The position numbers and the translations under genes are program-made. DNA of 64,000 nt from Candidatus Hydrogenedentota bacterium (GTDB lineage Bacteria; Hydrogenedentota; Hydrogenedentia; Hydrogenedentales; SLHB01). This document shows, piece after piece, positions 20,249-56,383 of the stretch. Positions within the stretch are counted from its first letter, which is position 1. Each line of letters opens with the position of its first letter. The stretch is from the NCBI GenBank assembly GCA_019695095.1, contig JAIBAQ010000002.1, positions 40,995-104,994 of the forward strand. The letters are read 5' to 3'. The notes beneath the pieces were generated by a model. It was given only the letters and a program-made list of their open reading frames with translations, did no database searches and was not told the origin of the DNA.

Positions 20249-21475
20249 TCATCGTGTATGAATGGCGTCGAACATGGCAACGATATTGTCCGGAGGGACA
20301 TTGGCGAGTATGTTGTGTACCTGTTGGAATACGAACCCACCGTTCGGACGCAAGGCGCGGACTTGCTCAATTACGTGTTGACGCACTTCGTCCGGTGTCC
20401 CATTCGGCAGCACGCGTTGAGTGTCGCAGCCGCCGCCCCAAAAGGTGATGTCGTTGCCAAAATCGCGTTTGATTGTAACGGCGCTCATGCCTGCGCACGA
20501 GATTTGAACGGGATTGATGGCGTCAAGACCTGCATCGATGAGGTCGGGTAACAATTCGCGCACGCCGCCGCAGCAGTGCAGCATCACCTTCACGTCCGCA
20601 AGCTGCTTCGCGCGGCCCCACATGGCTTTGTGGCACGGCTTGAAGTACTCGCGATACATATCCGGCGAGATCTGCGGACCGCCCTGCGACCCCAGATCGT
20701 CTCCAAACAAAATGACGTCGATATACGGACCGACTGCACCCAGGAATCGCTCCAGATTTGCCAGATGAATCTCAAGTAATCGATCCAGAAAAGCGTGGAC
20801 TTTGTCCGGATCTTCCGCCAGCATCATGAGGAAACCATCGTTTCGCCAGAAGAACTGACCCATCTCCAGCGTGTTTCCGCCGAATAACCCAATGATCGCT
20901 TTGTCCGTCGATGCCCGGAGGCGCTTCGCTCCTTCAGCCAGCCGTTGCAGCCCATCCGGACCCGCCGTGAGAGGTCCCGGGGGTGACGCCACAGCGCACC
21001 ACATGCACTCGCTCATTGCGCCAGGAATATTGTCGATGTCTTCGTGCTCAAGGTAAGGATAGTGTGTCTGTTCAAAGTACAACGCGCCGTCGGGCATCTG
21101 GGCAATCACGCGTCCGCTCGTTGAGCGAATCACCCAACGGGCTCCGTCGCGCTCCGGCAAGGCCCACGCGGGCATCTGACACGGTGTGCCGTCCGGCAAT
21201 GTCCAGTCGGCCCAGTCCTTGTCATCCAGGGCAAATGCGCGGCCCAACTCAATGGTGTCAATGCCGAATCGGGTCAGCACGTCATCATCGACGATGGCGA
21301 GTTGCTGCACCGGGTCATAGACACGTATCGGCCGTTTCGGCAGACCAAGGTGATCGCGCAGTCGCGCATAGGCAATAGCCGCAATACCGCTTGAGCGGTG
21401 CCCAGAAAGATCGACAGCGACCCGATCCGGTTCGCGGTGATTCAACGATGCCAGTACTCGTTCGCGCGAATTCAT
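20249..21475 (-). CDS. URO-D superfamily protein of the MtaA/CmuA methylcobamide-methyltransferase type (annotated as uroporphyrinogen decarboxylase family)
   Basis: About 400 aa with the URO-D TIM-barrel fold and an N-terminal RERVLASLNHREPDRV. Zinc-ligand-like H-x-C motif VMLHCCGGV followed ~75 residues later by GGGC, as in MtaA. It is the last gene of the GH-like/symporter operon. Confidence 0.75.
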   Translation of the reverse strand: MNSRERVLASLNHREPDRVAVDLSGHRSSGIAAIAYARLRDHLGLPKRPIRVYDPVQQLAIVDDDVLTRFGIDTIELGRAFALDDKDWADWTLPDGTPCQMPAWALPERDGARWVIRSTSGRVIAQMPDGALYFEQTHYPYLEHEDIDNIPGAMSECMWCAVASPPGPLTAGPDGLQRLAEGAKRLRASTDKAIIGLFGGNTLEMGQFFWRNDGFLMMLAEDPDKVHAFLDRLLEIHLANLERFLGAVGPYIDVILFGDDLGSQGGPQISPDMYREYFKPCHKAMWGRAKQLADVKVMLHCCGGVRELLPDLIDAGLDAINPVQISCAGMSAVTIKRDFGNDITFWGGGCDTQRVLPNGTPDEVRQHVIEQVRALRPNGGFVFQQVHNILANVPPDNIVAMFDAIHTR

Positions 21476-27179: not shown

Positions 27180-29798
27180 ATGAGTATGGCATCGTTGGTT
27201 GTTGCGTGGGTGTTTGTGTCTGCACAGACTCCCGGGGAAGCGCCATCATCGGTACAATTGACGGCCAAATTCTCCCGCGCTGGATTTGAACAGCCGGAGG
27301 CAATCTTGTGGCCCGCGTATTTCTGGCTATGGAACGCTCCCCTTGAGCCAGAACGGCTTCGCGAGCAGCTTCACGACATGGCCTCACACGACGCGCGCAG
27401 CGTGTGCGTCTTGCCGATGCCGCACGGATTCCGTCCTGATTCAACAAACAACAGTCTGGACCCCGACTATCTCACCGATGCGTATCTAGCGCGTGTCCGC
27501 GAGATGGCGCAGGAAGCGGCAAAACTGAAGATGGCGTGGTGGCTTTACGACGAGGGCGGGTGGCCATCCGGGCAGGCGCTTGGGAAGGTCGTTGAGGGTC
27601 ATCCCGAGCTGACTCGCCGCTCGGTGACGCGCGAACGCGTAGATGCTTCTGCACCTTATACGGTTCCCGCCGACGCCCTCTGCCTCGTCGTGGAACAGCC
27701 GGAGGCGCGCGTTGTTCAGCCAGGGGCGACTTGGTCGCCATCCAGTTCTGAGGATGTCGCCTATGTTTATCGCGTTGTTCCGGGAGGCGGCGTAGACTTG
27801 CTCAATCCGAGCGCAACGCAACGCTTCCTCGAAATCACGCACGAGGCCTACGCACGGGTCGTGTCCGAGTACTTCGGCACGACGATTCCGTTCACGTTTA
27901 CGGACGAACCAGGTGCTGGAATGCCGCGCCCGCCCGATTCGATCCCCTGGGTTGAAGGGCTCGACACGTTGTATGCAGGACGCGGTGGACGTTCCCTTCT
28001 TGAGGATTTGCCGAATTTGTTCACATCACCCGCGCCAGATATGCCGGTAGAGGTGATGCAGGCGCGTGTCGCACTCTACGACGCGCTTTCAATGCAGTTT
28101 AAGGATGCCTACTTTGGGAGACTCCAGGAATGGTGCCGCGCTCATGACTTGGCCTCCGCAGGGCATTTGGGAGGAGAAGACGAGACATTTGGCGTCGTGA
28201 AGCACAGCTTTGGTCATTTGTTGCGTCCGTTACGGACGATGGACGTGCCGGGTGTTGACCTCATCTGGCGGCAAGTCTTTCCTGGGCGCGAGAATCAGTC
28301 CAACTTCCCGGTGGCGGCTGCAAGCGCGGCGCATCAGAACGGGACACGGTTCGCTTTCACGGAGTCTTTCTGCGTGTACGGCAATGGGCTTACTCCCGCG
28401 CAGATGAAATGGCTCATCGACTATCAGTATCTGCGGGGTGTGAATCTTCTTGTGATGGGCTGTTATCCGCTGAGTACGGAAGACCACCACATGACCGGTG
28501 AGCGTCCTCACTTTGGTTCAATGAATCCGCTATGGGATCACCTTCCGGGGTTCCATGCCTATGTCGCGCGCTTGGGGTATGCGCTATCCGTTGGACGTCC
28601 GGCGGTACGAACGTCCTTGTACTACCCCGTGCGCGATCTGTGGGCGTATGGCCTTGACGCGAAGGCCGCCGCGGAAACGTATGAAACGCTGGGTGCCGAA
28701 CTTCTTGCGCGGCAGTGTCCCTATGATCTAATTGATGACGACATGCTTGGGAAGGCGCAGGTGACGGACGGGGTACTAGTTGCCGGGGCAATGCGCTACA
28801 ACACAATTGTGTGCGGTGACGTGCGTTGGATGGCTCCCGAGTCACTTGCGCGGCTTGTGCAGCTTTCGCAAGCCGGTGGCAACGTTCTGTGCGTGAATCA
28901 TGCGCCAGGAATCCGCGGAGACGGTGGCGAGGACGTTACATCGTTAGTTGTCGGAACGGTTGGCGAAATTGCGGGACGCGTAACGTCCGCAGTTGCGATG
29001 ACACCTGCAGCGCGTGGACTGAGAGTTGCCGAGCGCGAAACCGAGAATGGCCGGATTCTCGTTCTCTTCAACGAAGGCACGTCTGCCTATGAAGGACAAT
29101 GCACGGTGGGTTCGGCCCACGCGACGGAATTGAACTTGGAGCGTGGCACGACTGAGCGAATTCCGGTATCGGGCGGAACGATTTCGCTTCAGATGGAACC
29201 CGGCGATACGAAGGCTTTTCTGCTGGCGGAAGATTCGCTTGAAGGTGCTGGTCCCCAACGTTCAGCGCAGCAGACCATCACTATTGATGATTCGTCCATT
29301 CGCGCAGTCGCGAGCAAGCAGACTGTCGTGGGAGAGCACAACTTCGAATACGTGAAGCGAAGCCTTGCCGCCGTGCCGTTCGCGAATTCGGCAATGTGGA
29401 AACCCTGGTTATCCGAAGATTTCTCCGGAGAGGTAGACTACGAATTTGTATTCAATGTCCCAGCAGAATGGTCGAGCAGTCCTATCCTTCTGGAAACCGG
29501 CGCGATTGAGTATGCTGCAACGGTTTTTGTGGATGGCAAGGCTGCCGGATACTTGCTATGGCCGCCGTGGCGCGTGACACTGCCCGCATGCGAACCGGGC
29601 GAGCATACAATTACCATACGTGTCGCAAACACGCTGGCGAATGAACTGACCTCTGAACGGGTTGCGCAACTCTGGGCAACGAAAAAGGGGCCGGGTTGGC
29701 CCAGCCCCTATCATGTACGCGCTTTGGAGTTCGAGAAGGAGTCGCGCGGTGGGGGAATTCGCGGTCCCATTCGGTTATCGCAATTTACCCAGTCTTAG
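27180..29798 (+). CDS. Putative glycoside hydrolase (GH106-like alpha-L-rhamnosidase-type architecture with C-terminal galactose-binding-like domain)
   Basis: An 872-aa protein with a short N-terminal signal. Conserved PAYFWLWN-type N-terminal segment and a C-terminal beta-sandwich similar to the GH2 sugar-binding domain. The family call is from memory of motif patterns only. Confidence 0.45.
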   Translation: MSMASLVVAWVFVSAQTPGEAPSSVQLTAKFSRAGFEQPEAILWPAYFWLWNAPLEPERLREQLHDMASHDARSVCVLPMPHGFRPDSTNNSLDPDYLTDAYLARVREMAQEAAKLKMAWWLYDEGGWPSGQALGKVVEGHPELTRRSVTRERVDASAPYTVPADALCLVVEQPEARVVQPGATWSPSSSEDVAYVYRVVPGGGVDLLNPSATQRFLEITHEAYARVVSEYFGTTIPFTFTDEPGAGMPRPPDSIPWVEGLDTLYAGRGGRSLLEDLPNLFTSPAPDMPVEVMQARVALYDALSMQFKDAYFGRLQEWCRAHDLASAGHLGGEDETFGVVKHSFGHLLRPLRTMDVPGVDLIWRQVFPGRENQSNFPVAAASAAHQNGTRFAFTESFCVYGNGLTPAQMKWLIDYQYLRGVNLLVMGCYPLSTEDHHMTGERPHFGSMNPLWDHLPGFHAYVARLGYALSVGRPAVRTSLYYPVRDLWAYGLDAKAAAETYETLGAELLARQCPYDLIDDDMLGKAQVTDGVLVAGAMRYNTIVCGDVRWMAPESLARLVQLSQAGGNVLCVNHAPGIRGDGGEDVTSLVVGTVGEIAGRVTSAVAMTPAARGLRVAERETENGRILVLFNEGTSAYEGQCTVGSAHATELNLERGTTERIPVSGGTISLQMEPGDTKAFLLAEDSLEGAGPQRSAQQTITIDDSSIRAVASKQTVVGEHNFEYVKRSLAAVPFANSAMWKPWLSEDFSGEVDYEFVFNVPAEWSSSPILLETGAIEYAATVFVDGKAAGYLLWPPWRVTLPACEPGEHTITIRVANTLANELTSERVAQLWATKKGPGWPSPYHVRALEFEKESRGGGIRGPIRLSQFTQS

Positions 29799-29815: not shown

Positions 29816-30508
29816 CTATTCCTTCTTCAACACTTTGATGCGCAGGTCTTTGAACTGAATCTTCATCGGCGGGCCGGGGTGCATCTGCACGGCGATGATG
29901 CCTTTGTGGCAGGACCACTTGGCGTCGCGGTCATCGACTTCGCACATGAGCTGACCGTTGATGCGCAGTTCGATCTTGCTGCCGATTGCACTGACCTCAT
30001 AGTCATTCCAGTCGTTCTGCTTTACGACTTTCTGCAACTCTTTGGGTGAAGCGAATTGTTCTTCCTTTTTGGTTCCATCCTCGGCAATAACGGATTTGAA
30101 ACCACGCATTACCACGCCCAGGCGATCGTGCTGGAACAGGCATCCTGTCCACTGCGGGCCATTCTCGATGTCCGCTTGGTATCCCCACGTGTCGTAATCG
30201 GGACGTCGCTCGCTGCGGAATTGCAGGCCTGAATTGCCTCCTTCGCCGATGATCCGGTACTTGAACCGCATGACGAAATCGGCGGGTTCGGCGTCCTTCC
30301 AAACAAGATAGTGATGTTTAACGCAAGGCTTATCCTGCGTGCTCTCTGACGTGATGGCTCCGTCCTCGACCCACCATCCGCCGGGCTTGCCCTCCCACCC
30401 CGTCAGGTCCTTTCCATTGAACATGGACACAAAACCGTCTTCGTCGGCCGCATGAGCCCAAGGAAGCACGGCAAAGAAAAATAAAGAAAACGCCAAAACT
30501 CTCTTCAC
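29816..30508 (-). CDS. DUF1080-family 3-keto-disaccharide hydrolase (concanavalin-like beta-sandwich)
   Basis: Signal peptide, then the hallmark FNGKDLTGWEG...W.V.DG start and the overall ~230-aa size of DUF1080. Adjacent to a TAT-Gfo/Idh/MocA dehydrogenase, as is usual for this family. Confidence 0.85.
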   Translation of the reverse strand: MKRVLAFSLFFFAVLPWAHAADEDGFVSMFNGKDLTGWEGKPGGWWVEDGAITSESTQDKPCVKHHYLVWKDAEPADFVMRFKYRIIGEGGNSGLQFRSERRPDYDTWGYQADIENGPQWTGCLFQHDRLGVVMRGFKSVIAEDGTKKEEQFASPKELQKVVKQNDWNDYEVSAIGSKIELRINGQLMCEVDDRDAKWSCHKGIIAVQMHPGPPMKIQFKDLRIKVLKKE

Positions 30509-30535
30509 GATTCTTCCCTCATTTCATGCTCGGAG

Positions 30536-31894
30536 TTAGCTTGGGAGCTTGTAACCTTTGCGCCGTGGACGCGACAACAGCTTATTGCCCTCGTCGCAGT
30601 TCGTGAACTTCTCCTTGTCGGGATTCCAATTGAGAGTCTCGCCTACCCGGCCTACTTCCCGTGCGATGTTCACGAGATAGCATACCGTTGAGCTGCGGTG
30701 CCCGATTTCAATGTCCGCATTGCACTTCTGACGTGTCTTGATGCATTCGAGCCAATTCTCGATGTGGGGCTGGGTCTCCAGCACCTGGAGGGGAGCCGGC
30801 CTGTCGGGCGAATTGACCAGGTCGGCTGGCGCTGCGAGGATCTTGTCGCGATTAATGTCGATACTTCCATTTTCGCCCGTGAATATTGCGCCGAGTCCTG
30901 GCCCGAAATCCGAGTCCAGGCAGAGATCCAGTACGGCCCCGTTGGCGTATTTCATGGTGATTCGCGCGCGTGGTCCCACCAGTCCCTTGGCCATGTTGTA
31001 ATAGCCGACGCCCGTTTCTTCTTCCGAAGTTGCACGTTCGTACAAGCCGCAGGGTTTGTCGGTGACGGGCTCTTCCAGACGCACTTCGATGGGTCCAGTT
31101 TCGTCCGTGCCCAAGCCGCGTTGGATTTGGTCATAGCTGTGAGCGCCCCAACCCGTTACGCCAAAGCAAAGACCGCCGCCATCGTAGTCCCACCAGCGCG
31201 CCCAATCGTGATGCAGCGACGAATGGTACGGGCGCATGACTGCTTGGTTGGTCCAGATGTCCCACCATTTATCATCGCCCCCGGCGGGCATTTCTTCGCC
31301 GGGCTTGTCTTCCCAACGCAACGGGCTCATGAAGTTTGGCGCTTTGACGACAATCGACTTGCCGAGCGCTCCGTTCTTAACCAGATCGCTCGCCCAATTG
31401 TTGAGAGGCATTGAGCGCTGCTGTGTCCCCACTTGAGTCACGCGCTTGTGTTTGCGAGCGACTTTCACCATCTCGCGGCCTTCGGCGATGGTCAAGCACA
31501 TCGGTTTTTCGATGTAGACGTCCATGCCCATTGCCATCGCGTGACATGCAACCCATGCCCTGGCGTGCGTCGTGGTTTCCACCATGACGCCATCAAGCTT
31601 TTCTTTCTCGATCATCTTGCGAAAATCGGTATAGCCTGTGGCTTTCGTTTCTTTGCTTAGGTTTTCGACGGCCGAATCGACTCGTGGCTTGTAGCAGTCG
31701 CAAACGGCGGCGATGCGCATCTGCGGGATCTTCAAACACGTCGCGGCGATATCGCGGCAACGACCTCCCAGGCCGATAAGCCCAATGTTGATGGTCTCGT
31801 TTGCTGAAGGGCCCTCAAGGCCCAGTGCCCTTGCTGAAATGATCATTGGAGCCGACGCTGCGGCAACTTTGAGGAACCCCCTGCGACTCAGCAT
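30536..31894 (-). CDS. Gfo/Idh/MocA-family oxidoreductase with twin-arginine signal (glycoside 3-dehydrogenase-like)
   Basis: TAT motif SRRGFLKVAAA. Rossmann GLIGLGGRC. Gfo/Idh/MocA C-terminal alpha/beta domain. Confidence 0.85.
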   Translation of the reverse strand: MLSRRGFLKVAAASAPMIISARALGLEGPSANETINIGLIGLGGRCRDIAATCLKIPQMRIAAVCDCYKPRVDSAVENLSKETKATGYTDFRKMIEKEKLDGVMVETTTHARAWVACHAMAMGMDVYIEKPMCLTIAEGREMVKVARKHKRVTQVGTQQRSMPLNNWASDLVKNGALGKSIVVKAPNFMSPLRWEDKPGEEMPAGGDDKWWDIWTNQAVMRPYHSSLHHDWARWWDYDGGGLCFGVTGWGAHSYDQIQRGLGTDETGPIEVRLEEPVTDKPCGLYERATSEEETGVGYYNMAKGLVGPRARITMKYANGAVLDLCLDSDFGPGLGAIFTGENGSIDINRDKILAAPADLVNSPDRPAPLQVLETQPHIENWLECIKTRQKCNADIEIGHRSSTVCYLVNIAREVGRVGETLNWNPDKEKFTNCDEGNKLLSRPRRKGYKLPS

Positions 31895-32025
31895 GTCCTG
31901 TAGTCCTTCCTGTCGGCTTTCGCCTCACCGTGTTTACCCGTTACCACCTCACAGCAGCCTAGCACTCGAGCGACACCGCTTCAACCGCTTCGACCGGACT
32001 TCGGAAGTTCAAATGTCCGGTAGTT

Positions 32026-33222
32026 CTAGACAGATTGCAGGGTCCGTATGCTTTCGATCAGGTAGTCCAAAGCTGCGCGTGTCTGACGCGGATTGATGGG
32101 CAGCGTCACGAGGCGGTCCATGACGGCTTCGGCCACGGGAAATTGTCCGCGGCTGAACCCGCGCTTCTGGAATGCCGTCGACAGGTGTAGCGGAATGTAA
32201 TGAGTCCCGACCTTGACGCCGCGTTCCTGCAGCATACGATAAACGAAGTCTTCCTTGTTGATGCCGTAGGTCCCTGCGTCGATTTCAACCGGGAAAAGGT
32301 GAAACACATGCTTGCATCCCGGTGAAACCGTCGGCAGTTTGATCCCTTTGACGTCCTTCAATCCCTCACTGAGATAGGCTGCATTTTTCGCGCGGCGTGC
32401 GTTTAGGTCATCAAGTTTGCGCAGTTGAACACGTCCCACGGCGGCCTGCATATCCGTCATGCGGAAGTTGTAACCGGTGTCGTCGAAATCCTGGAACCAG
32501 AACCGCTTGCCCATTGGGAATTTGGTCTCGTCCAGTGAACAATACTTGGTGCTTTTCCCGTAGACGCGCGTGCAATGCGAGCGGTACAACGCGATGCGCT
32601 CAAAAACCTCTGGGTCGTTGGTGGTGATCATTCCGCCTTCACCCAGCGTAGACAAGTTCTTCTGCTCATGAAAGCTGAAGCAGCCCGTCGCTCCCATGCT
32701 CCCGGTCTTGCGGCCTTTGTACTCCGCGCCCACCGCATGGCACGCGTCTTCAACAATCGCGAAGCCGTGCTGGCGCGAAAGCTCCAGGATTGCGTCCATA
32801 TCGCAGGATTGACCGTAGAGATGAACCGGCAGCACGGCGCGTGTATTTGACGTGAGCTTCTCTTTGAGTTTCGTGGGATCCATGTTGTAGGTGACAGGAT
32901 CGATATCGACAAAATCCACTTCCGCGCCAAGCGTCGCGCCTACGGCGGCGGTCGCAATCCATGTCAGCGGCGTTGTAAGGACGCGTTCTCCCGGTTTGAT
33001 TCCAATCCCAATCAGCGAAAGGAAGAGCGCTGCCGTGCCATTTGACACGGCTCGAGCGTGACTTGTGCCGCAGTACTCGGCGAACTCCTTCTCGAACGCG
33101 ATGCATTCGTCGCCGCTGGTGGGCGCGTTCTTCCGCAACACATCAAGCATGGCCTGTTCTTCTTCGGGGCCATACTCGCTGCCGAACTTGATTTCGAGAT
33201 CGAACTTGATAGGGGTAGCCAT
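32026..33222 (-). CDS. DegT/DnrJ/EryC1/StrS-family PLP-dependent (keto-)sugar aminotransferase
   Basis: Aspartate-aminotransferase fold type I with the DACHAVGA and FSFHEQKNLSTLGEGGM (PLP-lysine) motifs. No signal peptide, so cytoplasmic. Confidence 0.85.
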   Translation of the reverse strand: MATPIKFDLEIKFGSEYGPEEEQAMLDVLRKNAPTSGDECIAFEKEFAEYCGTSHARAVSNGTAALFLSLIGIGIKPGERVLTTPLTWIATAAVGATLGAEVDFVDIDPVTYNMDPTKLKEKLTSNTRAVLPVHLYGQSCDMDAILELSRQHGFAIVEDACHAVGAEYKGRKTGSMGATGCFSFHEQKNLSTLGEGGMITTNDPEVFERIALYRSHCTRVYGKSTKYCSLDETKFPMGKRFWFQDFDDTGYNFRMTDMQAAVGRVQLRKLDDLNARRAKNAAYLSEGLKDVKGIKLPTVSPGCKHVFHLFPVEIDAGTYGINKEDFVYRMLQERGVKVGTHYIPLHLSTAFQKRGFSRGQFPVAEAVMDRLVTLPINPRQTRAALDYLIESIRTLQSV

Positions 33223-33248
33223 TGCTTATCCTCGCTTGCTGGGGGTTG

Positions 33249-34085
33249 CTATGCTTTGACGTAGAGCACGTCGTTGGCCAATTTCTTGAGCCATTTTCGT
33301 TCGCTTGCGCGAACGCCAGTGTCTGTAATGATGCGGTCGAATTGTTTCACAGCCGCATAGCGGCAGAAAGACCGACGGCCAATTTTGCTGTGGTCTACGA
33401 CGAGTATTCGCTGCGTGCCTGCCTGCATGACACCTTCGCACACGCTGGCAAGATCCAGGGCAATCGTGAAGACGCCATCCGGCGTGACGCCGTCAGCGCC
33501 TACAATAGCGTAGTCTACGTGAAAACGAGTCAAGTTCTCCGCGGTGAGCCACCCCGTCAAGTCCGGGCTGCCCCTGCGCGCCGTGCCACCCAGCAGCACC
33601 GTTTCCAGCTCGTCGTGTGCGTAGAGAACCGACGCAATAGCCAACGAACTCGTGAGGACGGTAAGGCCTGGAATTCCCGCGATGGCTTTTGCCACTTCCA
33701 GCGTTGTTGTTCCGCTATCGAGGGCCACCGACGAGCCCGGTTCAATCATTGCCGCCACCGCGCGGGCAATTGCGCGCTTCTCAGGGGCATTGGTGTTGCC
33801 ACGTTCCTGGAAGGCAAACTCGACGATACCGGGCTTCGATAGGATGGCGCCCCCGTGCGTGCGCGTGATGCTGCCCACTTGTTCGAGTTGCTGAAGGTCG
33901 CGACGGATGGAAGCGAGACTCACCGAAAACTTCTCGGCAAGCTCTTGAGCCGTGACCTCGCCTTTACCGTTGAGGTGTCCGACGATTTGGCCGTGACGTA
34001 CATTCGCTGCGCGACTACTCTTGCCCACGGAGATTTGTTCCTCTCTTTCTTTGGGCTTGACGTGGCTCGATTCGGGTATTATCAT
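33249..34085 (-). CDS. DeoR/GlpR-family transcriptional regulator
   Basis: N-terminal HTH (VTAQELAEKFSVSLASIRRDLQQLE) and a C-terminal DeoR sugar-phosphate-binding domain. The true start may lie ~20 codons downstream of the track start. Confidence 0.8.
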   Translation of the reverse strand: MIIPESSHVKPKEREEQISVGKSSRAANVRHGQIVGHLNGKGEVTAQELAEKFSVSLASIRRDLQQLEQVGSITRTHGGAILSKPGIVEFAFQERGNTNAPEKRAIARAVAAMIEPGSSVALDSGTTTLEVAKAIAGIPGLTVLTSSLAIASVLYAHDELETVLLGGTARRGSPDLTGWLTAENLTRFHVDYAIVGADGVTPDGVFTIALDLASVCEGVMQAGTQRILVVDHSKIGRRSFCRYAAVKQFDRIITDTGVRASERKWLKKLANDVLYVKA

Positions 34086-34160
34086 AGTGCGCAGAAACGA
34101 GCAAAAACAATCATAAAACGCGCAAGTTGTCCTGCTCTACTCAAGAAAGGAAAAACCGGT

Positions 34161-35003
34161 ATGAACCGGAAGAACGTAGCCTGGGCATTGCCCTTGTCGA
34201 TGCTGCTGGCAGTCTTGACCATGCTTTCCTCGGTGGCCGCCGCGGCACCCGAGTCGGTGCTTCCTCCGCCAAAGAATGGGCATGTGTATGTCGTTGCCCA
34301 CCGTGGAGCCCATCAGGGGATTCCTGAAAACACCCTTCCCGCGTACCAGAAGGCCATCGATCTTGGCGCTGACTTCGTGGAGATCGACGTACGCACCACC
34401 AAAGACGGTAAGTTTGTCAGTGTTCACAACGGCAAGGTGGACGATTACACCCAGGGTGCCGTGAAGGGCAATGTCTCGGATATGACCTTGGAGGAGCTTC
34501 GCGCGCTGGACATCGGGAGCCGTGTCGGTCCCGAATGGAAGGACACGAAGATACCCACGTTTGAAGAGATCCTTGACCTATGCAAAGGAAAAATCGGCAT
34601 CTATCTCGATCTCAAGGCGGCCGAGGTTGCGCCCCTCATCAAAGAGATCAAGGCCCGAGGCATGGAACGCAGTGTGATTTGGTATGCGGGGCCGAGTAAG
34701 TTGAAAGAGGTAGTCAAGCTCTGTCCCGAGTGTATCCCCATGCCCGACCCCTATGAGATGAAGAACCTTCCTAAATTGCTCGAGCAGGATAAGCCGCGAC
34801 TTGTGGCGTCTTCTTGGGACTTCTACTCGAAGGAGTTTGCAGAGAAGTGCCACGCGGCGGGTGCGTTAGTGATCGTTGACGACGATGGCCCCCAGTGCTG
34901 GGGGCCTGCCTTGGACTGGGGCACCGACGGAATTCAAACTGACGAGCCCGAACAGTTGATTGCGTACATAAAGCAGCGCGAAAGCGCCAAAAGCACTAAA
35001 TAG
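34161..35003 (+). CDS. Secreted glycerophosphodiester phosphodiesterase (GDPD family)
   Basis: Start trimmed to a Met with an AAAGGA ribosome-binding site and a signal peptide. GDPD motifs HRGAHQGIPENTLPAY and EIDVRTTKDG. Divergent from the DeoR regulator. Confidence 0.8.
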   Translation: MNRKNVAWALPLSMLLAVLTMLSSVAAAAPESVLPPPKNGHVYVVAHRGAHQGIPENTLPAYQKAIDLGADFVEIDVRTTKDGKFVSVHNGKVDDYTQGAVKGNVSDMTLEELRALDIGSRVGPEWKDTKIPTFEEILDLCKGKIGIYLDLKAAEVAPLIKEIKARGMERSVIWYAGPSKLKEVVKLCPECIPMPDPYEMKNLPKLLEQDKPRLVASSWDFYSKEFAEKCHAAGALVIVDDDGPQCWGPALDWGTDGIQTDEPEQLIAYIKQRESAKSTK

Positions 35004-37343: not shown

Positions 37344-38348
37344 TTACTGGTTCTGCAGGACGTCAAGCATGGCAGCGACATTTTCGGGTCGCGCGTCGCC
37401 AGGCACCGCGTGCGCTGGTGAGGCGAACAAACCGCCGTTTTCACCAACGCGCTCCAGAAGCTGTCGGACGTGAGTCCGAACCTCATGGGGTGTAGCGTAG
37501 GGCAGGATTTGCTGTGTGCTTATACCACCGTGAAAGCAAAGCCGATCGCCGTAGCGTGCTTTTGCGTCGAAGACGTCAATGACCTCCGGTTGAAACGGAT
37601 TGAATACGTCGATGCCTGCGTCGATCAGGTCGGGGAACAATTCGTCCACCTTTCCACATGAATGGATGAATACGAATTTCCCGTGCTTCTTTACATGCGA
37701 GTACATGCATCGAGCTCGGGGAAGGATGAATTTCCGCCAGAGATCGCGGCCCATCAAGAGGCCGCGTTGACTCCCCCAGTCGTCGCCGAAATACATCGCA
37801 TCGATAGCGTATTTGCAGGCACGGTCGATCACGGCAAGATTGAACTCCAGTATGCGGTCAAGCAATGCGTGAACGAACTCGGGTTGAGCTACCATTCCCA
37901 TCAAGACGTTTTCCATGCCTGCCAAGGTCCAAGCGCGCTCGAAGAGCGAGAAACCTAGGTTCGCAATGATGAAGCGATCGTCTTGTTGCTCTTTTGACTT
38001 GGGAAAGCCCTCGTAGCGCGTTGAGTCATTGGGGTCGGGCAATTCGAACGAGTGGACGTTCTCCGGAGTGACCAGGCTGTTGCATACAACACCGATATCC
38101 TTGTCGACAGACCGGTCCCACAGCACTCCAAAAGGATCGCGCCAGACATTCGGCGCCGTCTCCGTCCATGCATTTGCCGGGTTTGTGTCCAGCAGGGTGA
38201 GGCAATTGCCCAGCGCCGTCTCGAAATCCGAGTGGCCGAAGTATCCAACCATCACCGCGCGCGCCTTCTGTGTAAACTCCACGTTGTACGGCACGAAATC
38301 GGGCTGCTCGTGGCGAAGCGTCGCCAGCACACGCTCACGGTTCGTCAT
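37344..38348 (-). CDS. URO-D superfamily protein of MtaA/CmuA methyltransferase type (paralog of 20249..21475)
   Basis: Same N-terminal RERVLATLRHEQPDFV. H-x-C motif FIHSCGKV, DLIDAGIDVFNP, and a downstream CFHGG. About 335 aa. Confidence 0.75.
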   Translation of the reverse strand: MTNRERVLATLRHEQPDFVPYNVEFTQKARAVMVGYFGHSDFETALGNCLTLLDTNPANAWTETAPNVWRDPFGVLWDRSVDKDIGVVCNSLVTPENVHSFELPDPNDSTRYEGFPKSKEQQDDRFIIANLGFSLFERAWTLAGMENVLMGMVAQPEFVHALLDRILEFNLAVIDRACKYAIDAMYFGDDWGSQRGLLMGRDLWRKFILPRARCMYSHVKKHGKFVFIHSCGKVDELFPDLIDAGIDVFNPFQPEVIDVFDAKARYGDRLCFHGGISTQQILPYATPHEVRTHVRQLLERVGENGGLFASPAHAVPGDARPENVAAMLDVLQNQ

Positions 38349-38381: not shown

Positions 38382-40517
38382 TCAAAAGGTCAATTCCTTC
38401 TCCGACTCGACGTTCTTCAGGAGATCCTCTTTCTTGAACCATGTCGGCTTGAATGTGCGTTCGGCATACAATTTCTGAGCCTGATCTACGTGATGGGGGG
38501 AGGCCGGGTCTGCGCTCTGACCCCAATTCAGAATGCTGTATGACTCGATGCCGTCGCGATGAAGGAGCGTGAGCAGAATTGTGTGCGAGCCGCCTACACC
38601 GACGAACTTCCCGGATCCCTTAGGCTCCTCACGGCAATCCACATCCATGACAGTCTCCGTGCGGTCCATCTGTCCACCACCGCCAAACTCTGCGCCGGGA
38701 CAGGCAAAGTACTTGCCGTTGCGTCCAATGAGATTGATGTCGCCCCACGTGATATCCAATGTGCCGTAGACCTTCTTCATTTCAGCCACAGCGTCATCAA
38801 GCTTGTCGAGCAAGAGACTCTGATTCTCAGTGCTCAGGGGCTTGCCCTGAGCTATGTCTGGCATGGGAAGGCTTTGCTCGCACTTTAAGCGCCAATAGCG
38901 CATATAGGGTCCGGCCTTGCTGTCTCTCGTGAAGAAACCATCCCAACCGAGAATCACCGAGACGGCGCGTGCAAAATCCGGGTTCGACTTATGCAGGTCT
39001 TTATGGGCGTCCAAGGCCTCGCGTAGCGCCTTCTGCCAGGGTTTTGCAGAGATATCGTAGACATCGAGCGCATACTTCATCGCTTCATCTTTGGTTACGG
39101 AAGAATCCGCGTCGATCAGTTCCACCAGTCTTGCTCCGCGAGGAGTCTGATAGTCCCACGTCACGTTGTACAGGTACGGCTTGTACTTGTCCGGAGTCAT
39201 CGGAGATTCCTTCATCATGTTCTCCGGGCTGATATTGCAGTTGACGAAGTAACCTTGAGGCGGGTTTTCCATTTGTACGAGCTCGTCTATCTTGTGAATG
39301 CCCTTCCATCGTGTGGCTTCCGTGCCGCCCGGCACCGGGACAGACCAGTTATACCCTTCCGGACGCACGGGCGTATTGCCGTTTCGAAGATACCGGATGT
39401 TGCCTTCCGTGTCAGCGAAGGACACGTTTACCTCTACCAACTGGAGCATGGACAAAGCCTGGTAGAACTCGCTGCAATTCTTGGCGGAGACCATCTGCAG
39501 GAGTTGCTCAAGGACCCGGCTCTCGCCGAAGTAGGGTGATGCTCCGCAGTACGCGATCCCTTTTGCCGTGTCAGGTTCTGCAATCACCGGGCCGTAAAGC
39601 GAATAGACCATGGGCTTCTGCAGAGTGGGATTGTCCTTTATTGCGATGGAGGTCATCTTGACATCGAACTCGCGCCACTCTCCGTTGTACTGGTATTGAA
39701 GCGGGTTCTGCGGATTCAGCTTCACCATGTACACGTCGGCTGTGTCGGGTCCGCCGACGCAGTATGCCCAAGCCACGTGTCCCGAATGCCCCACGGCTGG
39801 CAGCGGGGTTCCCACCATCCAGAAGCCGCACAGATCGACATTCCCGGCATGCATGCGCCCTTCGTAAAAGAGCTCCATCCCTTCCCATGTAAGGTGCGGG
39901 TCGGCCAGAAAGATCGGGCAGCCTTCCGCCGAGCGGGACGGTCCGATGGCGAAGGCATTTGAGCCAAATGAGGGCGCCTTATCCTTTCGGCTGAGTTCTC
40001 GCATGACCGTCTCCAGCGGCCAATTCAACATCATGGCCCGCTGGATGGCCGCGCATTGCCAACCGTGCAACTCCACAGCAAATGGAGGCTTCTTGTCGGG
40101 GTACTCGGACACATACGCTTCGACGCCCCGCATGAAGTTGTCTCCCAGCTCGGTTATGTAAGATGGGGCGGTTGTCCAGTACTTCTTGCACAGTTCGTCG
40201 TTGCCCACAAGGCGCATGATGTAGTCGCGTTCGGCGAATTGAGGGCCAAACACTTCGGATAGCGTACCGGTCGCGATTCGCACGTTCTTGTAGATATCCT
40301 CAAGCCGATCCTCGGCCTGGGCATATCCCATCGCGTAAGCGGCTTCCGCCAGCGTTTCTGCGTAAACGTGTGGGGTGCCCCACGTATCACGAAAGAGAGT
40401 TGCCTTGTGGGCATCGTTTGCGCCGGCACTCGCCAACAGCGAACCCGCAAGACAGGCCCATATTGTGAAGTTGAGAGCACGGATCGCCTCTCTCTTCGAA
40501 TCACGCGTTGCTATCAC
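38382..40517 (-). CDS. Penicillin amidase / acyl-homoserine-lactone acylase family protein (peptidase S45, Ntn-hydrolase)
   Basis: Signal peptide. Autoproteolytic site ...GS/NAFAIGPSRSAEG with the N-terminal nucleophile Ser. Length 711 aa, fitting an alpha-spacer-beta organisation. Confidence 0.85.
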   Translation of the reverse strand: MIATRDSKREAIRALNFTIWACLAGSLLASAGANDAHKATLFRDTWGTPHVYAETLAEAAYAMGYAQAEDRLEDIYKNVRIATGTLSEVFGPQFAERDYIMRLVGNDELCKKYWTTAPSYITELGDNFMRGVEAYVSEYPDKKPPFAVELHGWQCAAIQRAMMLNWPLETVMRELSRKDKAPSFGSNAFAIGPSRSAEGCPIFLADPHLTWEGMELFYEGRMHAGNVDLCGFWMVGTPLPAVGHSGHVAWAYCVGGPDTADVYMVKLNPQNPLQYQYNGEWREFDVKMTSIAIKDNPTLQKPMVYSLYGPVIAEPDTAKGIAYCGASPYFGESRVLEQLLQMVSAKNCSEFYQALSMLQLVEVNVSFADTEGNIRYLRNGNTPVRPEGYNWSVPVPGGTEATRWKGIHKIDELVQMENPPQGYFVNCNISPENMMKESPMTPDKYKPYLYNVTWDYQTPRGARLVELIDADSSVTKDEAMKYALDVYDISAKPWQKALREALDAHKDLHKSNPDFARAVSVILGWDGFFTRDSKAGPYMRYWRLKCEQSLPMPDIAQGKPLSTENQSLLLDKLDDAVAEMKKVYGTLDITWGDINLIGRNGKYFACPGAEFGGGGQMDRTETVMDVDCREEPKGSGKFVGVGGSHTILLTLLHRDGIESYSILNWGQSADPASPHHVDQAQKLYAERTFKPTWFKKEDLLKNVESEKELTF

Positions 40518-43818: not shown

Positions 43819-45882
43819 ATGGGTCGATTCAGACCACCCTATCTGGGCGCCGCATATTATCCCGAGACGTGGCCCCGCGAGCAGTTGGACGAGGACATCA
43901 AGCTTATGCGCGATGCGGGCATGAATGTCATGCGCATTGCAGAGTTTGCGTGGAGCAGCATGGAGCCTGCAGAAGGGCGGCTGGAACTTGGCTGGCTTCG
44001 CCGTGTCGTGGACAAGCTGGCAGAGGCCGGAATCGCGACCATTATGTGCACCCCCTCGTGTACACCGCCCGCATGGCTTACCGAGAAGTACCCGGAGGTC
44101 CTCGTGGTAAGCCATGCGGGAGTCCGAGCGCGGCACGGCTCGCGCCGCCATGTTTGTCCCAATAGCCCGATCTATCGCGGCCACTGCGAACGCATCGTGA
44201 CCCGGCTCGCCGAAATGTTTGGTCAAGACGAAAACGTCATCGGCTGGCAAATCGACAACGAAGTGGACCTTTGGAAAGGCGAGGGGTGCTTCTGCGATCT
44301 GTGCGTACGACTGTTTCGTGAGAGGCTCCGCAAAAAGTTCGGGAGCATTGATGCCCTCAACGAATCCTGGGGAACGCATCTCTGGAGTATGACGTACCAA
44401 TCGTTCGAACAGATCCCGGCTCCCGAGCCCAGCATCCACGATCACCCGTCCTTGTCGACGGCCTGGACCTTGTTCCAAAGCGACAGTATGGTGGACTACG
44501 TCCTTCATCAGGCGTCAATCCTGCATGAGCACGTTTCGCAGCCAGTCGGCACCGATATGATGCCCATCTTGTCGGTGAGTTACGAGAAACTGCACCGGCA
44601 TCTCGACATTGTTCAATACAATCACTACGACTCCATGGAAACCCTATGGAAGCAGGTCTTCTGGATGGATTATGTCCGCCCCTTCAAGACGGCTCCGTTC
44701 TGGAACACCGAAACGGCCACCTGTTGGAATGGCGGTGTCACTGCCAACGGCTATAAGGATCCCGGGTTCTGCCGCGTCAATTCCTGGCTTCCTATTGCGC
44801 TGGGAGCGGAGGCCAACTTGTATTGGTTGTGGCGGGCTCACTGGAGCGGCCAGGAACTCATGCACGGCTCCGTCGTGTCGAGCCACGGCAGGCCGTTGCA
44901 TATCATGGGAGAGGTGAAGGAAGTCGCAAAGGGTTTTGAGGCGGCTGGAGACTTCCTTTCACAGACAGTCCCCGCTCCTACAGGACTCGCCGTGCACGTT
45001 TCGACCGTAGCGTGGGCTCAGTTCCGCCACCAACCCATGGCAAACGGCTTTGACTATCTTGATTGTCTCTTGAATCGAGTATGCAGGCCGTTGATGGACG
45101 TGCATCTGCGTGTGGACTTTATCGATCCGGCGGATTCTCTAACAGACTATAGGGTTGTGTATTCACCCTTCCTGCCTGCTTTGGATGAGTCTCGACTTCG
45201 AGAGCGTCTGTGGACTTGGATAGAAGCAGGCGGAACATGGGTGGTGGGCCCGCTGTCCGATACGCGCACTCTCGAAGCCACAAAACCTGCCGGCGCCCCG
45301 TTCGCCTCCCTGGAAGAGTGGGCTGACATCTACTGTGCGTACGAGGTTCCCGGCGACCCTCGCGATTTCGCCTTCCGTTGGAACGACGGAACGGCGTCAC
45401 ACGGCAGTTTGTGGTATTCGGGTTTTGAGACCGAAAAGGCAAAGGTGTTGGCGTCTTACCTCGACGGTCCGCTGAAGGGCATGGCCGCGATCACTGAGAC
45501 TCGAGTTGGCATTGGGCGCATTATCGTGCTCGGCACACTTCTGAACTCCCAGGATATGAGGGCCTTGATGCTTCGGGTGTGCGGCGAGGCTGAGATCGTT
45601 CCCGCGGCCGATGCATCCCCCAATGTCCTCGTCGTCCCGCGCGTAGGAGAGGGCGGGTCGGGAACAATTGTAATGGAGATTGAGAACCGGACTGGGTATC
45701 TGCAACTGCACCAGCCGTGCAAAGATATCCTGACTGCGCGGAATTACGATGGGCGTGTCGAAATAGAGCCCTATCAAGTCTTGGTGCTTCAGACAGAGCG
45801 CAGCATTGTAAGCGATGACGGCGCATTGGCCGGTCACGTCTCCGATAGGGGACCGCTCGGATCGTTTGAGGAGGCTCCCTAG
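43819..45882 (+). CDS. Beta-galactosidase, glycoside hydrolase family 42
   Basis: GH42 A-domain with the catalytic-acid context GWQIDNE and the Zn-binding Cys cluster CFCDLC, then trimerisation and beta-sandwich domains. Its TAG stop codon (45880-45882) lies within the CTAG terminus of repeat copy D. Confidence 0.9.
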   Translation: MGRFRPPYLGAAYYPETWPREQLDEDIKLMRDAGMNVMRIAEFAWSSMEPAEGRLELGWLRRVVDKLAEAGIATIMCTPSCTPPAWLTEKYPEVLVVSHAGVRARHGSRRHVCPNSPIYRGHCERIVTRLAEMFGQDENVIGWQIDNEVDLWKGEGCFCDLCVRLFRERLRKKFGSIDALNESWGTHLWSMTYQSFEQIPAPEPSIHDHPSLSTAWTLFQSDSMVDYVLHQASILHEHVSQPVGTDMMPILSVSYEKLHRHLDIVQYNHYDSMETLWKQVFWMDYVRPFKTAPFWNTETATCWNGGVTANGYKDPGFCRVNSWLPIALGAEANLYWLWRAHWSGQELMHGSVVSSHGRPLHIMGEVKEVAKGFEAAGDFLSQTVPAPTGLAVHVSTVAWAQFRHQPMANGFDYLDCLLNRVCRPLMDVHLRVDFIDPADSLTDYRVVYSPFLPALDESRLRERLWTWIEAGGTWVVGPLSDTRTLEATKPAGAPFASLEEWADIYCAYEVPGDPRDFAFRWNDGTASHGSLWYSGFETEKAKVLASYLDGPLKGMAAITETRVGIGRIIVLGTLLNSQDMRALMLRVCGEAEIVPAADASPNVLVVPRVGEGGSGTIVMEIENRTGYLQLHQPCKDILTARNYDGRVEIEPYQVLVLQTERSIVSDDGALAGHVSDRGPLGSFEEAP

Positions 45883-46072
45883 TCCGCAATTTGCACCGGC
45901 GCGATTGAGCGCCGACGCAAATTGCTCACGTGCAAGACGTTGAGGTTATGCCATGAGGATTTCTCGCGAACACACTCTGCTTTCGGAGAACCGCTTTGTT
46001 TTTCGCCGCAAGTCTCGAAAGCACAATGGTTACGAGATAGGTTCAAGTGTGTACGTGAGAAATCCGGGCTAG
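45879..46072 (+). repeat. Copy D of ~195-bp palindromic MITE-like repeat
   Basis: Flanked by CTAG at both ends (45879-45882 and 46069-46072). Terminal hairpin carries the C/D variant gcgccgacgc. Lies between the GH42 gene and the sugar ABC importer operon. Confidence 0.9.
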
Positions 46073-46305
46073 CTCCGTCGTCAGAGATAATAGAGATGCA
46101 AAGTCGTGTGTGCCCCCCGGATTGTGCGAGGATGATTCTGCATCCGGCTTCAGCGCTTGCAGGGCCGTTCGGAATCGCTCTTTTGATGGACAAGCAAGAA
46201 TGGGGCTCAGGGGCAGCCATATCGACTTCGTGTGAATGAGGCCCCAGCCGAACGTGTCGGTTCGTGGCCAGAAAAGTACGCGACTTCACGAGAGGGGTGC
46301 GGCAC

Positions 46306-47172
46306 ATGAAAAAGGCGTTCGTTGGATACGCCTTTATCAGTCCGTGGTTGTTCGGTTTTGTGGCGCTGACTGCCGTTCCGTTCGTAGTCAGCATCTACTT
46401 GAGCTTCACACGGTACGACATTGTCTCGCCGCCCGTTTGGATCGGACTGGCCAACTACAGACGGCTCTTCACGGAAGATCCTGTCTTCTGGATCGCCTTG
46501 GGCGTTACGTTCAAGTTCGCCTTGATTTCCGTCCCTCTGGGTATCGTTACGGGTATCGCAATCGCTCTGTTGCTCAATCTCAAGCTTCGCGGAATGAGTG
46601 TCTATCGAACAGCCTTCTATGTCCCTTCCATAGTGCCTATTGTTGCGACCTCCGTCATCTTCATGTGGATACTCAATCCTCAGATTGGCCTTGTGAACGG
46701 CCTTCTTGCGCGCGTAGGCATCCAAGGACCCGCATGGCTGCAAGACGCGAACTGGGCTCTCTGGGCCCTTATTCTGATGTCTCTTTGGGCGGTTGGCGGA
46801 AGTATGGTCATCTATCTCGCCGGCCTAAAGGACATCCCCGTGGCGCTCTATGAGGCGGCCATAATCGATGGCGCGAATGCCTGGCAACGCACGCGTCACG
46901 TTACACTGCCCATGCTGACCCCCGTCATCTTTTTCAATCTCATCATGGGGGTAATCGGCTCGTTTCAGTATTTCACGCAGGCTTGGATAATGACTGCCGG
47001 AGGTCCCAACGACAGCACGCACTTCTACGCGCTTTACCTCTTCATACGCGCGTGGCGTTACCTCGACATGGGCTATGCCAGCGCCATGGCTTGGATACTC
47101 TTTGCCGTCATCATGACCCTCACGGTTGCTATCTTCCGAACGCACAGGCGGTGGGTACACTATGGAAGCTGA
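46306..47172 (+). CDS. Carbohydrate ABC transporter permease (MalF/UgpA-like)
   Basis: Six TM helices and an EAA-loop region (EAAIIDGANAWQRTRHVTLP). Start at the Met with a GAGAGGGG ribosome-binding site. Confidence 0.85.
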   Translation: MKKAFVGYAFISPWLFGFVALTAVPFVVSIYLSFTRYDIVSPPVWIGLANYRRLFTEDPVFWIALGVTFKFALISVPLGIVTGIAIALLLNLKLRGMSVYRTAFYVPSIVPIVATSVIFMWILNPQIGLVNGLLARVGIQGPAWLQDANWALWALILMSLWAVGGSMVIYLAGLKDIPVALYEAAIIDGANAWQRTRHVTLPMLTPVIFFNLIMGVIGSFQYFTQAWIMTAGGPNDSTHFYALYLFIRAWRYLDMGYASAMAWILFAVIMTLTVAIFRTHRRWVHYGS

Positions 47173-48553: not shown

Positions 48554-48554
48554 T

Positions 48555-49463: not shown

Positions 49464-49576
49464 TGCGAGCCTTACGCTGCAAGCCAGAGGCAATCGGATA
49501 CACAGATGCGGCCGCTGCCCGGACTATGGCGGCAGTAACGCCCTGGGAAACGCGCATCGGGGAGGATCACGAAGTC

Positions 49577-51133: not shown

Positions 51134-51171
51134 CGGTTCAGCAATCCAAAACGATTCAGGAGTCTTGAGGA

Positions 51172-52680: not shown

Positions 52681-52746
52681 AACGAGAGCATTGGATACGG
52701 CAGTCGCGTGAATAGTAACAACAGGCAGCGGGGAGGGAGTACGGAG

Positions 52747-53526: not shown

Positions 53527-53586
53527 CGATGTGTTTATCTAGCAAGACGCACGAGAGAATTGTGTAACCACTATAGGAGATCCGCG

Positions 53587-54702: not shown

Positions 54703-54717
54703 GAGGGAACGGCCATC

Positions 54718-56358: not shown

Positions 56359-56383
56359 ACTTGAGAAACAGTGGAGCGGCGAA

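Follow-up and report, generated by a model that had tools for sequence, protein, structure and literature searches.

Locus and gene content

We analyzed a 64-kb stretch of DNA (called the window here; Candidatus Hydrogenedentota bacterium, Hydrogenedentales, GenBank assembly GCA_019695095.1, contig JAIBAQ010000002.1, positions 40,995 to 104,994) around four consecutive minus-strand genes, for a DeoR-family regulator (DeoR), a DegT/DnrJ/EryC1 aminotransferase (DegT), a Gfo/Idh/MocA oxidoreductase (Gfo), and a DUF1080 protein, and a divergent gene for a GDPD-family phosphodiesterase (GDPD). A first-pass annotation had taken the four genes for one operon that might make or break down 3-amino sugars. 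The main features are listed below.

29816-30508, minus strand: DUF1080 (3-keto-disaccharide hydrolase-family) protein, Sec-exported, putative 3-keto-glycoside lyase/hydratase (Pfam, 122 bits)
30536-31894, minus strand: Gfo/Idh/MocA oxidoreductase, exported by twin-arginine translocation (TAT), putative periplasmic glycoside 3-dehydrogenase (N-terminal Rossmann and C2 domains)
31956-31984, minus strand: candidate internal promoter in the DegT-Gfo gap, extended -10 type (TTGAAG-N14-TGC-TAGGCT)
32026-33222, minus strand: DegT/DnrJ/EryC1 pyridoxal 5'-phosphate (PLP) aminotransferase, cytoplasmic (Pfam, 375 bits; SFHEQK188 lysine motif)
33249-34028, minus strand: DeoR-family regulator with HTH_DeoR and DeoRC sugar-phosphate sensor domains (Pfam; 259 amino acids)
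34081-34110, minus strand: promoter-like element, TTGTTT-N18-TATGAT, within block TGATTGTTTTTGCTCGTTTCTGCGCACTATGATAA, putatively serving DeoR-DegT
34161-35003, plus strand: GDPD-family phosphodiesterase, secreted, single domain, divergent from DeoR (Pfam GDPD, 101 bits)

All four minus-strand open reading frames (ORFs) were recovered where they had first been placed, and Pfam confirmed every domain. The likely DeoR start is GTG 34028 (259 amino acids, GAGAGGA Shine-Dalgarno), where a gene caller had also placed it; it was favored because the alternative, ATG 34085 (278 amino acids), falls inside the conserved TATGAT -10-like box. The best NCBIfam scores of DeoR were to AgaR (170 bits) and GlpR (164 bits), both under cut-off. 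The GDPD start was corrected to ATG 34161.

The N terminus of Gfo (MLSRRGFLK) carries an exact S-R-R-x-F-L-K twin-arginine motif, which is kept in all members of its cluster (cluster-9). The Pfam TAT_signal model scored 19.5 bits (E = 9e-4), just below its gathering score of 22.7; an ARA cleavage motif is present, and the h-region is milder than in the Sec-type signals of DUF1080 (AHA/AD cleavage site) and GDPD (AAA/AP cleavage site). Inspection of the N-terminal sequences of DegT and DeoR found no hydrophobic stretch in either. On the motif and TAT_signal evidence, Gfo is predicted to work in the periplasm. The compartments first assigned (TAT-exported Gfo, secreted GDPD, cytoplasmic DegT) were upheld.

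Transcription units and control regions

The intergenic gaps measure 26 bp (DeoR-DegT), 131 bp (DegT-Gfo), and 27 bp (Gfo-DUF1080). When the 131-bp gap was aligned between the window and two homologous loci, L007 and L008 (such labels name the loci compared, L001 being the window), TTGAAG and TGC-TAGGCT were kept and the 14-nucleotide spacer varied. Conserved hexamers and TG around a variable spacer are what one would look for in an extended -10 promoter, and the gap probably holds an internal promoter for Gfo-DUF1080. Upstream of DeoR, the block TGATTGTTTTTGCTCGTTTCTGCGCACTATGATAA was likewise kept in these three loci, and the flanking intergenic sequence had diverged.

Three other explanations of the control regions were tried and set aside. 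The gap motif GTGCTAGGCTGCT does not travel with Gfo: it is confined to the window, L007, and L008, and the Gfo gene of L089 is not preceded by it. A riboswitch or attenuator in the 131-bp gap was rejected (no Rfam match; fold z = 0.01 against shuffled sequence). As for a shared DeoR operator, a repeat search of 31880-34200 gave short repeats at chance level only, none of which occurred both in the promoter region of DeoR and in the DegT-Gfo gap.

Two features lie beyond the DUF1080 stop codon.

29686-29709, minus strand: terminator-like hairpin (10-bp stem, 8 GC pairs, T-run; weak)
27180-29798, plus strand: glycoside hydrolase (GH) family 106-like (alpha-L-rhamnosidase family) gene, convergent (syntenic in L007 and L008 only)

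The hairpin, read from 29709 to 29686, lies 107 bp past the stop and is a perfect GC-rich stem within the GH106-like coding sequence (KKGPGWPSP); it is absent from L007 and L008. It may end the DUF1080 transcript inside the opposing gene. As an intrinsic terminator proving a four-gene operon it was downgraded, because it sits inside the GH106-like ORF and is missing from both relatives.

The locus is best read as two tight pairs, DeoR-DegT and Gfo-DUF1080, with read-through between them possible. The first-pass annotation had described a transcriptionally fused operon; the genes are indeed co-directional with no internal terminator, but fusion is not established, given the promoter-like element in the 131-bp gap.

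DegT neighborhoods across phyla

Relatives of DegT number in the thousands, and the top 120 clusters are 74 to 100% identical (Hydrogenedentes, Verrucomicrobiota, Phycisphaerae, and others). The best 80 of 212 relatives from a GTDB scan with one genome per species (69 to 89% identity) were used as loci, and the survey comprised 83 nonredundant loci from at least eight phyla, compared with tblastn and all-against-all clustering of 1,100 neighboring ORFs. The phyla include Hydrogenedentota, Verrucomicrobiota, Planctomycetota, Bacteroidota, KSB1, Sumerlaeota, and Calditrichota, and one cultured carrier is Dyadobacter frigoris AR-3-8 (L067), of the Bacteroidota. Eight contigs bear the labels Bathyarchaeia, Bifidobacteriaceae, or Nitrospiraceae/Nitrospirales (L015, L025, L059, L022, L035, L044, L051, and L062); their cassettes are 72 to 80% identical to those of Hydrogenedentota and Verrucomicrobiota, and the labels look like misbinning or mislabeled metagenome-assembled genomes (MAGs) from co-assemblies.

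An RmlD-like short-chain dehydrogenase/reductase (SDR) of about 300 amino acids (RmlD, 161 bits) lies directly upstream of DegT on the same strand in 69 of the 83 loci. Other neighbors are less frequent: a major facilitator superfamily (MFS) transporter of the organophosphate:phosphate antiporter (OPA) type, PgtP/GlpT/UhpC-like (34/83); a GDPD homologue within 10 kb (15/83); a GalK-like GHMP kinase directly downstream (12/83); a PGM/PMM/GlmM-like mutase (9/83); and a DeoR orthologue (6/83). The DeoR orthologues of L006 and L050 are 59 to 64% identical to that of the window and stand divergently upstream of MFS-SDR-DegT, and the window GDPD is 59 to 60% identical to those of L045 and L063. The association of GDPD and DeoR with DegT that had been proposed for the window was thus borne out, both genes recurring beside DegT orthologues in other phyla.

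The cassette has two input routes, which are mutually exclusive. The OPA antiporter (33 clustered loci) and the GalK-like kinase (12 loci) never overlapped; a FucP/GluP-type permease was always accompanied by the kinase (9/9 loci); and of the 12 GDPD loci in the cluster analysis, 10 also had the antiporter and none had FucP or GalK. Whether by permease and kinase or by GDPD and antiporter, the cytoplasm would receive a phosphorylated compound. The kinase of the 12 loci has a galactokinase signature and is about 45% identical, in a full-length match of 358 bits, to PDB 9ulx ("AbGHMP," an Acidobacteria GHMP kinase, also PDB 9uly), and JGI names relatives of the 9ulx protein L-arabinokinase. Together with the GH127/GalT-like/kinase cluster around AbGHMP, these matches point to an arabino/galacto-type anomeric kinase, hence to a sugar-1-phosphate. 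That cluster comes from an Acidobacteria MAG (GCA_018269055.1, L171:4427-9473; GH127 beta-L-arabinofuranosidase, GalT-like uridylyltransferase, GHMP kinase) and suggests a Leloir-like L-arabinose route; it contains neither SDR nor DegT and was rejected as a key to the pathway, and the window has no such kinase. A literature search found no paper for PDB 9ulx/9uly or for PDB 7b0d.

No sugar-1-phosphate nucleotidyltransferase motif was found among 1,074 ORFs neighboring DegT orthologues, and no glycosyltransferase, dehydratase, or flippase among the recurrent neighbor clusters. DegT orthologues elsewhere adjoin GH127, GH95, GH51-like, GH28, GH2, BNR_2, and FG-GAP proteins, consistent with a role in complex-glycan degradation. 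The window, L007, and L008 are among the few DegT loci that lack both SDR and MFS, and no RmlD-like SDR was found anywhere in the 64 kb of the window or in L007 or L008.

Prolixibacteraceae (L074:6068-19714; also L073, L077, L081, and L086) have an 11-gene co-directional operon around the DegT cassette. It encodes a FucP-type MFS permease, PGM-like mutase, RmlD-like SDR, DegT, GalK-like kinase, cytoplasmic Gfo/Idh/MocA protein, signal-peptide DUF1080 protein, PIG-L (BshB1-like) deacetylase, NagB-like protein, and GH2 enzyme, and it looks like a complete, undescribed amino-sugar utilization system. Full-text literature searches returned no description of the SDR-DegT cassette, and no curated family model covers its aminotransferase. 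Several small to medium-sized ORFs without a Pfam match also recur immediately beside it: a cluster of about 245 amino acids in three Hydrogenedentota loci (L036:3998-4735, L047, and L057), a 239-amino-acid ORF in L006 (9213-9932), and a 413-amino-acid cluster in Verrucomicrobiota (L002:4404-5645, L020, and L042).

The Gfo-DUF1080 pair

Of the 83 DegT loci, only three (the window, L007, and L008) have orthologous Gfo and DUF1080 genes after DegT. Both relatives are Hydrogenedentales whose DegT is 88 to 89% identical to that of the window, within a shared 10-kb syntenic block. Beyond the window, the orthologous DegT-Gfo-DUF1080 trio is thus syntenic in two close relatives only, which is essentially part of what the first-pass annotation had named as refuting its own reading.

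Gfo orthologues 58 to 75% identical to that of the window are abundant, and the reverse survey covered 84 loci with them (four look-ups and 80 from a metagenome scan). None contained DegT (0/84) or DeoR (0/84). An orthologous DUF1080 gene stood directly downstream of Gfo in 6 of the 69 loci with enough flanking sequence (L089, L091, L108, L118, L128, and L170; 60 to 78% identity, all without DegT) and was missing from that position in 63; a DUF1080 gene occurred anywhere in the locus in 13 of 84. Three of the four look-ups were solitary Gfo genes and the fourth was a Gfo-DUF1080 pair beside GH36- and GH42-like genes. Because the pair recurs without DegT, Gfo-DUF1080 is a genuine small module, and DegT is part of a different one.

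In Bacteroides thetaiotaomicron and Alistipes, TAT-signal Gfo/Idh/MocA enzymes (BT2158/AL3) carry out periplasmic C3 oxidation of glycosides with a tightly bound cofactor, DUF1080 proteins (BT2157/AL2) act as 3-keto-alpha-glucoside 1,2-lyase and hydratase, and the rest of that 3-keto pathway is supplied by a TIM-barrel lyase and a Gfo reductase in the cytoplasm (PMC8121099; bioRxiv 10.1101/2024.03.25.586180). The window pair resembles these in gene adjacency, export signals, and periplasmic location, but it is remote in sequence, lacks a SusR-type regulator, and sits after DeoR-DegT. Its DUF1080 domain passes the Pfam gathering score (PF06439, 122.4 bits against a cut-off of 26.8, full length at residues 25 to 225), and matches to solved structures reached at most 48 bits. 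Gfo scored 117.5 bits against the BT_2158 family (NF058561), short of the 750-bit cut-off and over residues 3 to 242 only, and its best PDB matches (8tdf/8tdh) gave 72 bits over the N-terminal half. The first-pass assignment of TAT-Gfo and DUF1080 as the recognized periplasmic oxidative glycoside-cleavage pair stands, for proteins only distantly related to the characterized enzymes; by analogy, action like that of BT2157/BT2158 is plausible, and family membership is putative.

The BT2156-BT2159 pathway has two further component types, and both are present, at family level, 20 kb away.

52708-54702, plus strand: xylose-isomerase-like TIM-barrel protein and cytoplasmic Gfo/Idh/MocA protein (family level)

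Neither protein has a signal peptide. They lie in a plus-strand cluster (43819-59653) with GH42, an ABC sugar transporter, PGM, DUF2961, an S15 peptidase, and GH116, and are candidate DegT-independent partners of the periplasmic pair.

Identity of DegT

DegT matches PF01041 over its full length (374.9 bits, profile positions 5 to 360 of 360), and the SFHEQK188 motif, whose lysine we take to be the catalytic PLP lysine, is invariant in 20 of 20 orthologues. Relatedness was judged by rankings of hidden Markov model and PDB scores. The protein reaches no curated equivalog cut-off for nucleoside diphosphate (NDP)-sugar aminotransferases (PseC, ArnB, WecE, LegC, DesI, and RfbH were compared); scores against cut-offs were 322.6 versus 423.5 (PseC), 244 versus 631 (ArnB), 200 versus 420 (LegC), 220 versus 375 (PRK11706), 184 versus 435 (WecE), and 159 versus 650 (DesI). 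The best NCBIfam matches are all C4 enzymes (PseC 323, ArnB 244, and WecE 220 bits), and the PDB ranking mixes C4 enzymes (perosamine synthase [Per] 221, ArnB 203 bits) with C3 enzymes (DesV 220, QdtB 203 bits). Score was accordingly abandoned as a means of deciding between C3 and C4 chemistry, the two classes scoring about equally; the RmlD-like partner weakly favors C4. Automatic names of DegT relatives include "perosamine synthetase" and "dTDP-4-amino-4,6-dideoxygalactose transaminase."

NtdA, the model for the kanosamine-like chemistry first suggested, gave 124 bits (rank about 42 of 55 PDB matches) against about 220 for perosamine synthase and DesV, and the likeness does not hold at this level. 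Functional drift in the window lineage was considered and rejected: of the 165 positions with 95% or higher conservation elsewhere, its DegT keeps 160, the five changes being conservative, and control clades show 0 to 6 changes at the same 165 positions.

Interpretation

On balance we think it more likely than not that the locus is a one-lineage juxtaposition of two independently conserved carbohydrate-utilization modules in a Hydrogenedentales glycan island. Module A (the divergent GDPD with DeoR-DegT) would be a trimmed copy of the cassette found in at least eight phyla, whose core is a transporter, the RmlD-like SDR, and DegT; the window locus would retain only GDPD, DeoR, and DegT. In the complete cassette, one input route would have secreted GDPD feed a GlpT/UhpT-type organophosphate:phosphate antiporter, and the other a FucP-type permease feed a GalK/arabinokinase-like anomeric kinase. 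DegT would then interconvert the amino and keto forms of a sugar phosphate, and SDR the keto form and the ordinary sugar phosphate, nucleotide carriers playing no part. Catabolism is the most likely direction, with DegT removing the amine and SDR then reducing the ketone, and in some lineages a phosphomutase would pass the product to glycolysis. DeoR-type sensors typically bind sugar phosphates, and the regulator here would sense one. Since constraint on DegT is unchanged, the window enzyme probably catalyzes the same reaction, with the reductase encoded elsewhere.

Module B (TAT-Gfo and Sec-DUF1080) would be a periplasmic oxidize-then-eliminate glycoside-cleavage pair, probably with its own promoter in the 131-bp gap and maybe also read through from DeoR-DegT. 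Such read-through would give co-regulation without shared intermediates.

Module A has recognizable parallels. In E. coli, glpTQ and GlpR bring together a secreted GDPD phosphodiesterase, an organophosphate:phosphate antiporter, and a repressor of the DeoR family whose effector is phosphorylated. The same trio surrounds DegT in L006, L050, L045, and others; there, however, it is coupled to SDR and DegT, its members reach none of the GlpT, GlpQ, and GlpR equivalog cut-offs, and the window locus lacks the antiporter. The NtdC/NtdA (KabC/KabA) kanosamine pathway of Bacillus pairs a dehydrogenase with a DegT-fold aminotransferase on a sugar phosphate, not a nucleotide sugar, as the SDR-DegT cassette is predicted to do. 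The cassette differs in that its redox partner is an RmlD-like SDR instead of a Gfo/Idh/MocA protein, in having no NtdB-type phosphatase, and in a context of uptake and catabolism, not antibiotic biosynthesis.

Several points weigh against the two-module reading. A terminator scan found no terminator-like site between the four genes, which makes co-transcription of DegT and Gfo likely. The synteny among the window, L007, and L008 carries no information, since the three are close relatives that share the entire 10-kb block. In four to five Prolixibacteraceae loci, a single operon unites the same DegT orthologue with a signal-peptide DUF1080 protein and a cytoplasmic Gfo; in L050 and L053, the cassette has cytoplasmic Gfo genes as immediate neighbors; and a Gfo-family gene of one of three subfamilies lies within 4 kb of DegT in 13 of 83 loci. 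This proximity may be due to chance, Gfo genes being common (the window has two, with one DUF1080 gene); some link between DegT and Gfo or keto-sugar chemistry is possible. In sequence comparisons, NDP-sugar aminotransferases come closest to DegT (323 bits for PseC; about 200 to 220 for Per, DesV, and ArnB), and we infer the substrate, the direction, and the use of sugar phosphates from gene context alone.

A bolder version, which we hold only tentatively, is that SDR-DegT is an undescribed catabolic route of many phyla for ring-aminated (C4/C3) sugar-1-phosphates that dispenses with nucleotide activation and that Hydrogenedentales have wired to the periplasmic pair for attack on the same polymer. 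Its substrate would come from phosphodiester-linked glycans (GDPD and phosphate antiporter) or as free sugar (permease and kinase), and a candidate class is 4-amino-4-deoxy sugars, e.g., L-Ara4N-1-phosphate released from lipid A.

The integrated pathway of the first-pass annotation, in which Gfo oxidizes C3, DUF1080 releases the sugar, and DegT converts the imported product into a 3-amino sugar, all under DeoR, or which runs in reverse as catabolism of 3-amino glycosides, now seems improbable to us. It draws on the tight, co-directional spacing of four genes with no terminator between them, on the recurrence of DegT with nonorthologous Gfo and DUF1080 in Prolixibacteraceae operons, on the Gfo genes adjoining the cassette in L050 and L053, and on the C3 aminotransferases DesV (220 bits) and QdtB (203 bits) among the closest solved relatives of DegT. 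Yet the orthologous trio is limited to one shallow clade, L007 and L008 with the window; DegT occurs in none of the 84 Gfo-orthologue loci; and its near-universal partner (69/83) is an SDR of the 4-ketoreductase family, not Gfo. DegT and Gfo would also work in different compartments with no transporter in the locus, similarity to the NtdA type is low (124 bits), an internal promoter is probable in the DegT-Gfo gap, and in the known route the 3-keto sugar is reduced by a cytoplasmic Gfo, for which 53560-54702 is a candidate. These results speak against a single 3-amino-sugar pathway.

A still less likely reading makes DegT an ordinary NDP-sugar aminotransferase of cell-surface glycan biosynthesis, with coincidental neighbors. 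The best family scores (PseC, ArnB, WecE, LegC, and perosamine synthase), the automatic names, and the usual RmlD-like partner, a typical NDP-sugar enzyme, point that way; PseC, ArnB, Per, WecE, and RmlD-type reductases are the closest sequence relatives of DegT and its usual SDR, and the PLP lysine motif is kept. Against this, every curated equivalog cut-off was missed (PseC 323 versus 423.5; ArnB 244 versus 631). Where pairs of an NDP-sugar C4 aminotransferase and a 4-ketoreductase would have a nucleotidyltransferase, 4,6-dehydratase, glycosyltransferase, or flippase, the recurrent neighbors of the cassette are transporters (including the sugar-phosphate antiporter), the anomeric kinase, GDPD, DeoR, the mutase, and glycoside hydrolases. 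Its conservation is extreme, and 70 to 89% identity over at least eight phyla is unlike variable surface-glycan genes.

Least likely of all is nonorthologous displacement, in which Gfo would have replaced a lost SDR as the redox partner of DegT and would act on the same keto/amino sugar. SDR is indeed lacking in the window, L007, and L008, where Gfo comes directly after DegT, and both families make or reduce keto-sugars. However, the TAT signal of Gfo is conserved (periplasm) and DegT is cytoplasmic, all 84 other loci with Gfo orthologues are without DegT, so that the Gfo of the window has not been retooled, and the other SDR-less loci (L009, L034, L043, L046, L071, L083, and L085) have no replacement oxidoreductase nearby, their neighbors being GH127, FG-GAP, URO-D-like, and GH20/67-like genes.

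Genomic surroundings

About 40 kb around the locus is a glycan-foraging island, rich in glycoside hydrolases (GH106-like, GH42, and GH116) and containing two DUF2961 genes, an SSF symporter, DUF4838, a calcineurin-like phosphoesterase, a WbsX-like and LamG protein, LacI regulators, two URO-D/MtaA-like genes, and a penicillin-amidase-family gene. The last of these (Ntn-hydrolase; 38382-40517), which clusters with a homologue near the DegT gene of L051, could be an N-deacylase for acylated amino sugars. The URO-D/MtaA-CmuA-like (methyltransferase-type) genes (window 20249-21475 and 37344-38348; L034:8081-9175; L090:4295-5386) recur in glycan loci, adjoining both DegT and Gfo orthologues, and may be putative sugar O-demethylases.

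Implications

The flagged locus is probably not a new kanosamine-like pathway; instead, a glycoside-cleavage pair of known type would have been joined locally to the remnant of another module. The more interesting lead is the highly conserved, uncharacterized SDR-DegT sugar-phosphate cassette with its two alternative feeding routes, an idea that can be tested in the cultured D. frigoris AR-3-8. To our knowledge, NagB-type chemistry handles C2 amines only; a gap would therefore be closed if the cassette does carry out catabolic deamination of amino sugars with the amine at C3 or C4. In that case, major degraders of glycans in the environment would also have put enzyme folds known from nucleotide-sugar metabolism to a second use, on plain sugar phosphates.

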